The notes below the pieces were generated by a model. It was not told where the DNA came from and made no database searches. It worked only from the letters and a program-made list of their open reading frames with translations. The position numbers and the translations under genes are program-made. A DNA stretch of 202 bases from Escherichia coli (GTDB lineage: Bacteria; Pseudomonadota; Gammaproteobacteria; Enterobacterales; Enterobacteriaceae). The stretch lies in the NCBI RefSeq assembly GCF_003334385.1, contig NZ_QOWN01000230.1; one strand, given 5' to 3'. Below are positions 1 to 202 of this stretch, piece after piece (positions within the stretch are counted from its first letter, which is position 1; every line of letters begins with the position of its first letter).

Positions 1-202
1 AAACTTCCTTGATATGGCGTACACCGGTCTGCGCATCGTAGGAGCCAAACAGGGCCGCCACCAGGTCAAACACCCACCGTGCACAGGACTCCCCGAACGT
101 CGGGCTACCAGGTGCATCCACAATCCGCAGTTGTTTAAAAATCGCCAGGGCATGTGCGGCCTCGTCCGGATAAATCGGATCCGGAATAATCGACAGCCCC
201 TT
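1..202 (-). CDS. Partial CDS, both ends outside the window; tentatively the N-terminal ATPase region of a phage terminase large subunit-like protein
   Basis: Seen in sequence: the minus-strand frame with codons plus 202..200 through 4..2 has 67 sense codons and no stop. Composition is protein-like (about 10 Ala, 7 Gly, 6 each of Leu, Ile, Val, Asp, only 3 Arg, 1 Cys, 1 Trp). Codon choice is typical of Enterobacteriaceae (CTG for 5 of 6 Leu, CCG for 4 of 5 Pro). The same-register plus frame is also open but is about 15% Arg with rare CGG/AGG/CGA/ATA codons, as expected for an antisense shadow. Product call is from memory: residues 42-67 (RWVFDLVAALFGSYDAQTGVRHIKEV, plus 2..79) resemble the conserved block preceding Walker A in large terminases (HK97-like '..WQ.F....LFGW....G.RRF..A.VEV' and lambda gpA '..RW..LPFQRAIMNAMGSDYIREV'). 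Confidence that this is a real CDS on the minus strand is about 0.85; confidence in the terminase assignment is about 0.4. Confidence 0.6.

Follow-up and report, generated by a model that had tools for sequence, protein, structure and literature searches.

The question raised by this locus is whether a short stretch of Escherichia coli DNA (202 nucleotides, analysed as a whole and called the window below) codes for part of a phage large terminase (TerL), as an earlier reading of its letters had proposed, and in which kind of genetic element such a gene would lie. With a probability of about 97%, the window comes from the interior of the terL coding sequence of an E. coli prophage or phage of the lambdoid, HK97-type and HNH-associated kind, in a lineage to which the Stx-converting phages 2851 and YYZ-2008 belong. 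The coding frame, family, domain architecture, fold, gene neighbourhood and conservation of catalytic residues are established here. The domains outside the window were examined on the only contig that contains the window exactly (L003) and on E. coli ABU 83972 (L001); for the gene neighbourhood, phage 2851 (L002) was read as a third context.

The window within the terL gene

The window has a G+C content of 57%, and reading its minus strand in frame 1, which contains neither a stop codon nor a frameshift, results in a peptide of 67 amino acids, KGLSIIPDPIYPDEAAHALAIFKQLRIVDAPGSPTFGESCARWVFDLVAALFGSYDAQTGVRHIKEV. The frames +2, -1 and -2 are all open from end to end, and comparison of the three corresponding peptides revealed that only the -1 peptide matches any PHROG family. 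Among three copies of the terL gene, 58 of the 75 nucleotide differences are located at third codon positions of the TerL frame, and 62 differences are synonymous in this frame and 13 non-synonymous. As judged from these sequences, purifying selection acts in the TerL frame. The positions of the window features within the gene are given in Table 1.

Table 1. Features of the 202-nucleotide window, with residues numbered as in the full-length TerL
Feature	Window position	Strand	Basis
Codons 18-84 of the gene for the 553-aa large terminase (TerL)	2..202	-	Translation; placement in full-length homologues
First base of codon 85	1	-	
Block of the original prediction, FDLVAALFGSYDAQTGVRHIKEV, residues 62-84	2..70	-	Regex; PF03354 from residue 63; conservation
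Predicted alpha-helix, residues 29-41, PDEAAHALAIFKQ	131..169	-	AlphaFold2 (pLDDT 97-98 here); DSSP
Predicted alpha-helix, residues 59-69, RWVFDLVAALF, with conserved W60	47..79	-	AlphaFold2 model; family alignment
Predicted short beta-hairpin, residues 72-79, YDAQTGVR, ending at conserved R79	17..40	-	AlphaFold2 model; family alignment
E83 and V84, first two residues of predicted strand beta-1 (residues 83-87)	2..7	-	Model and HK97 alignment
Codon 59, CGG (Arg), with the differing base at window position 78	77..79	-	DNA comparison

Conservation and structure were studied with an alignment of 82 sequences, consisting of 80 near-full-length relatives, the query and HK97 TerL, which also served as the input for AlphaFold2. 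In this alignment, the most conserved positions of the window are W60 (73/82), F69 (60/82), G70 (73/82), R79 (59/82) and E83 (58/82), and I81 is conserved too. The first of the two tabulated helices belongs to the N-terminal part that precedes the Pfam model; the second also bears the conserved F69 and G70. For the rest of residues 18-84, the model predicts a loop at 19-28 and a short helix at 53-56. According to this model, the segment encoded by the window caps the ATPase core at its N-terminus, directly before the nucleotide-binding loop. An adenine-binding Q motif was also sought in the window; residues 61 and 75 show no conserved glutamine, and the HK97 paper (PMC9410871) makes no mention of such a motif.

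The original prediction was based on a block in the translated fragment, written as F.L..ALFG....TG.R...EV, that would lie just upstream of the P-loop of packaging ATPases. The block is present at residues 62-84, but the literal string fails since G70 and T76 have five residues between them where it allows four; with five dots, the pattern matches. Its proposed place holds, with the Pfam TerL_ATPase model starting at residue 63 and with the conserved window positions listed above. The block FDLVAALFGSYDAQTGVRHIKEV is the beginning of this Pfam domain and leads to strand beta-1 and the P-loop.

Codon 59 is the only site at which the window departs from the best matches in E. coli, from which it differs by one base. 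This codon is CGG (Arg) in the window, CCG (Pro) in the best E. coli matches, including ABU 83972, and CAG (Gln) in phage 2851. The corresponding alignment column is a variable site, at which P (19), D (18), E (16) and Q (15) are found most and R occurs twice among the 82 sequences.

Family, fold and phosphate-binding loop

Multiple lines of evidence assign the fragment and the protein to which it belongs to the large terminases. The 67-aa fragment alone is recognized by phrog_7622 (E 6.5e-44) and phrog_9 (E 2.8e-06), both described as 'terminase large subunit'. The full-length TerL matches phrog_9 with an E-value of 2.2e-145 and contains the two Pfam domains PF03354 (TerL_ATPase, residues 63-224, E 2.9e-11) and PF20441 (TerL_nuclease, residues 276-535, E 4.1e-09). 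Among solved structures, its sole sequence match by phmmer is HK97 TerL (PDB 6Z6D, E 1e-09), and BLASTP against HK97 gp2 resulted in 23% identity (E 2e-11). The TerL-like product proposed for the minus strand is supported, and 5,435 relatives were found at E <= 0.001 among 1.84 billion representative proteins.

Not all of this evidence bears on the window itself. The pairwise alignments to HK97 TerL obtained with phmmer and BLASTP start only at residues 84-88; therefore, it is the protein beyond the window that accounts for the sequence match to a solved structure. For the window itself, the sequence evidence comes from the family alignment, the PHROG profiles and the point at which the Pfam model begins. 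A Pfam scan of the 67-aa fragment alone returned nothing even at E <= 10, which reflects a lack of power, since the fragment covers no more than 22 residues of this model. A profile search against the PDB reached an E-value of 1.1e-77; this value is discounted as evidence because the profile itself included HK97 TerL, and the search served only to view how the N-termini line up.

The AlphaFold2 model of the full-length TerL has a mean pLDDT of 95.5 and a pTM of 0.90. When this model was compared with the PDB using Foldseek, the best 35 matches were all large terminases, headed by HK97 TerL (6Z6D, E 1.9e-27) and followed by D6E, T4 gp17, Sf6 gp2, PhiV-1, T7, P74-26 and G20c. For the nuclease domain, the terminase nuclease domains of G20c and SPP1 were found as fold matches. 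The TM-scores over the whole chain are modest (0.49-0.55), which in our reading of the model would reflect a different relative orientation of the two domains.

Neither the fragment nor the full-length TerL matched any family in NCBIfam; release 20 has no HMM that matches the full-length protein (L001 7592-9253) even at an E-value of 0.01, and RefSeq nonetheless names it 'terminase large subunit'. In PHROG, the family phrog_11206, with 101 positions and labelled 'unknown function', corresponds to the N-terminal 100 residues of TerL (E 1e-61, residues 1-100). Two clusters of representative proteins, P0009 and P0135, are also N-terminal TerL pieces, 98-99% identical. Databases seem to contain many such truncated pieces of terL, which are left unlabelled.

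The original prediction also placed a Walker A box immediately beyond plus position 1 of the window. A P-loop is predicted there: the sequence after V84 reads FIL-IPKKNSKS-T, in which IPKKNSKS (residues 88-95, L003 6830-6853) lies 4-11 residues beyond the last full codon of the window. Both phmmer and BLASTP align this motif with IARKNGKT of HK97 TerL (residues 54-61), and in the model it follows the strand of residues 83-87 and precedes a helix of residues 94-108, which is the classical position of a P-loop. The location was therefore predicted correctly, but the form was not, as neither the strict G/A-x4-GK-S/T pattern nor a loosened x5-GK[ST] regex matches anywhere in the full-length TerL. 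The strict pattern fails because this clade has a serine where glycine is canonical. At residue 93, just before the Walker lysine, S is found in 32, G in 27, A in 6 and T in 6 of the 82 relatives, so serine, being the commonest residue here, is normal in the clade and no sign of decay. By this comparison, the deviation in Walker A (serine for glycine, and isoleucine at the first position) is a trait of the family, and the form of the P-loop in the clade is P-K-K-N-[S/G]-K-[T/S]-T. The lesson is that a strict Walker A regex would wrongly refute a correct TerL call.

The residues expected to be catalytic are well conserved. In HK97 TerL, it has been shown that mutation of the Walker lysine K60, or of K57, a second lysine upstream of it, abolishes packaging and ATPase activity (PMC9410871). 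In the alignment, the counterparts of K57 and K60 are K91 and K94, each of which is present in 77 of the 82 relatives. The Walker B pair D186/E187 is at least 90% conserved, lies at the end of the strand of residues 180-186 and aligns with D153/E154 in the ILDET motif of HK97. In the C-terminal domain, D356 and D442, putative residues of the nuclease site, are also at least 90% conserved.

The serine P-loop, the second lysine and an N-terminal extension of about 60 residues that cannot be aligned pairwise to HK97 might together mark a mechanistically distinct TerL subfamily. Such a subfamily could, for example, have an altered geometry of the phosphate loop, or its N-terminal helices, which make up most of the window, could provide a surface specific to the clade on which the small terminase or the HNH partner docks. 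This reading is regarded as improbable, and if true, it would refine known terminase biology and would not add a new system.

The comparison with HK97 gp2 (6Z6D) shows how far the likeness extends. Both proteins have the same two-domain architecture of ATPase and nuclease and the same fold, their Walker A motifs (including the extra upstream lysine) and Walker B pairs align, and both lineages have an HNH endonuclease as a partner gene. The differences are an identity of only about 23%, NGKT in HK97 as opposed to NSKS here, and about 34 extra N-terminal residues in this TerL (I88 aligns with I54). The gene order differs as well: in HK97, TerL is followed by a portal gene (about 424 aa), a protease and the major capsid protein (MCP), whereas here it is followed by a protease-MCP fusion and a portal of 859 aa. 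The TerL proteins of D6E, T4 (gp17), Sf6 (gp2), P74-26 and T7 share the ASCE ATPase and RNase-H-like fold with this TerL (Foldseek E 1e-13 to 1e-06, probability 1.00), but they are only 9-16% identical, and their packaging is of the headful (pac) or another type. In P74-26 and phi29, TerL lacks the second lysine of Walker A (PMC9410871). Much closer are the TerL proteins of phage 2851 and YYZ-2008 (Pankowvirus) and that of an E. coli prophage (WP_001304597.1), which represent the same gene: their DNA is 96.5-99.5% identical to the window, and the proteins, all of 553 aa, differ at 5-11 residues, by point differences only.

Distribution, gene neighbourhood and proposed role in packaging

The gene is widespread in E. 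coli. Using megablast, the window was matched in 1,252 of 5,426 complete E. coli genomes at identities of up to 99.5%; none of the 5,426 is identical to it. All of the E. coli matches listed lie within genes annotated 'terminase large subunit'. The 1,252 genomes contain 2,937 matching places, with a median of one and a maximum of seven copies per genome, and six times the segment is located on a plasmid. Where several prophages of one genome carry nearly identical terL genes, these copies could serve as substrates for recombination. In the phage collection, 96 records match the window, 93 of them at an identity of at least 90%. These are mostly phages converting for Stx1a, Stx2, Stx2a and Stx2c, plus phages 2851 and YYZ-2008, and the DNA identity to Stx-converting phages such as 2851 is about 96.5%.

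These numbers agree with the view, expressed at the outset, that the gene belongs to a common and well-described class. The terL gene found here is an ordinary gene that was already known and is routinely annotated. The fragment is a marker for a packaging module, that of a lambdoid prophage lineage which is often Stx-converting and is present in about a quarter of the complete E. coli genomes. It can be used for delimiting prophages and for recognizing repeated, recombination-prone DNA, and has little significance beyond annotation.

An exact pattern of 60 bases from the window had no match in a collection with one genome per species and was found in one viral contig of IMG/VR, IMGVR_UViG_3300029250_000062. 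This contig (L003) contains the whole window (202/202, at 6620-6821) and is the only exact match over the full window. Its terL is an intact ORF of 553 codons (6569-8230), of which the ATG overlaps the stop codon of the small terminase gene (ATGA); this overlap suggests that the translation of TerS and TerL may be coupled.

In all three contexts (L001, L002 and L003), the same gene order is observed. Lysis genes (holin, endolysin and spanins) are followed by genes encoding an HNH endonuclease, TerS and TerL, and then by a 645-aa fusion of head protease and major capsid protein, a small ORF, the 859-aa portal, head-tail adaptors and tail genes, which include the tail tube and chaperones. The HNH endonuclease (121 aa, phrog_589, E 1.6e-44) is encoded about 290 bp upstream of TerS in each context, and TerS (phrog_641, E 1.8e-68) overlaps the start of TerL. 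Downstream of TerL, the MCP-protease fusion corresponds to phrog_617 and the portal to phrog_2271. Thus, the neighbours named in the original prediction, namely small terminase, portal and capsid genes, were indeed found, and HNH, TerS, the protease-MCP fusion and the portal are all neighbours shared by phage 2851 and ABU 83972. In phage 2851, the stx2c genes are located about 7.5 kb upstream. The region of the capsid fusion and long portal spans L001 2794-7527 and L002 1800-6528, and the HK97 region used for comparison is L004 542-5185.

This context bears on whether the window derives from a functional gene. It could also originate from a cryptic prophage in which terL has decayed to a non-functional remnant, and defective carriers of the gene do occur. 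In ABU 83972, the portal gene next to a terL copy that is 99.5% identical to the window is annotated as a frameshifted pseudogene (L001 2794-5378), so this prophage is probably defective; the TerL there is intact. In addition, Stx2a_F349 annotates a 'large terminase subunit, N-terminal part (pseudogene)', and truncated N-terminal TerL pieces form clusters of their own (P0009 of 240 aa, P0135 of 145 aa and phrog_11206 of 101 positions). Against this stand the intact 553-aa ORF in the sole 202/202 match, the absence of any stop or frameshift from the window and the mostly synonymous differences between terL copies. A remnant is therefore considered unlikely, and a coding fragment of an ordinary terL in a lambdoid prophage or phage is preferred.

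The original prediction had left the type of element open between a prophage, a phage genome and a phage-like element such as a satellite or gene transfer agent. Some satellites and gene transfer agents carry terminase genes, and the window alone cannot reveal its own context. However, a complete lambdoid late region is present in all three contexts examined, and named phages with records of 55-65 kb, Stx-converting ones among them, carry the same gene. The full late region makes both the satellite and the gene transfer agent very unlikely, and with full lysis, head and tail modules in the gene neighbourhoods, this part of the prediction has been rejected; the prophage or phage part has been retained.

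For the packaging role of this prophage or phage TerL, HK97 is the guide. Many phages have HNH genes adjoining their terminase genes and cos sites (PMC3592412), and in HK97, cos cleavage by TerL is stimulated by the HNH protein GP74 (PMC9410871). The location of an HNH gene beside the terminase genes is the HK97 arrangement, from which we infer that packaging would be of the cos type and assisted by HNH. By the same analogy, the protein would have ATPase and nuclease activity and would cooperate with the HNH protein. A ring of TerL would dock on the portal, where its N-terminal ASCE ATPase domain would hydrolyse ATP and push the DNA through the portal into the procapsid. The C-terminal RNase-H-like nuclease domain would cut the concatemer, probably at cos, helped by the HNH endonuclease and TerS. 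The helices and hairpin encoded by the window would buttress the P-loop; a further role of these elements in binding TerS or the HNH protein is speculative.

Two further observations were made in the flanking regions. Upstream of the lysis cassette, L003 contains a 573-aa ORF (43-1764) for which all PHROG matches are families of unknown function (phrog_143, E 1.3e-257), and at the equivalent position in ABU 83972, a gene annotated 'SASA family carbohydrate esterase' is present. The ABU 83972 prophage also carries three tRNA genes (Arg, Arg and Ile; L001 17460-17712) upstream of the late region.

Reading frames on the opposite strand

That the real product is encoded on the opposite strand, in + frame 2 of the window, is the weakest of the explanations and is given next to no credence. 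It draws on the absence of stop codons from + frame 2 and - frame 2 throughout the window, on the rarity of three open frames among composition shuffles (0.6%), and on a 201-aa antisense ORF with an ATG start on the minus strand of L003 (6203-6808). However, neither this ORF nor the +2 and -2 window peptides match a PHROG family, and antisense open frames are a frequent by-product of codon bias, which is what we take this ORF to be. The substitutions point the same way: by hand count, one of the seven differences between the window and phage 2851 falls at a third position of + frame 2 and four of the seven at third positions of the TerL frame, which is also the frame in which the third-position differences accumulate over the whole gene. 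With no family match and the wrong substitution pattern, the frames +2 and -2 and the antisense ORF were rejected, and by sequence criteria, the ORF is probably not a gene. It straddles the junction of TerS and TerL and covers + frame 2 of the window.
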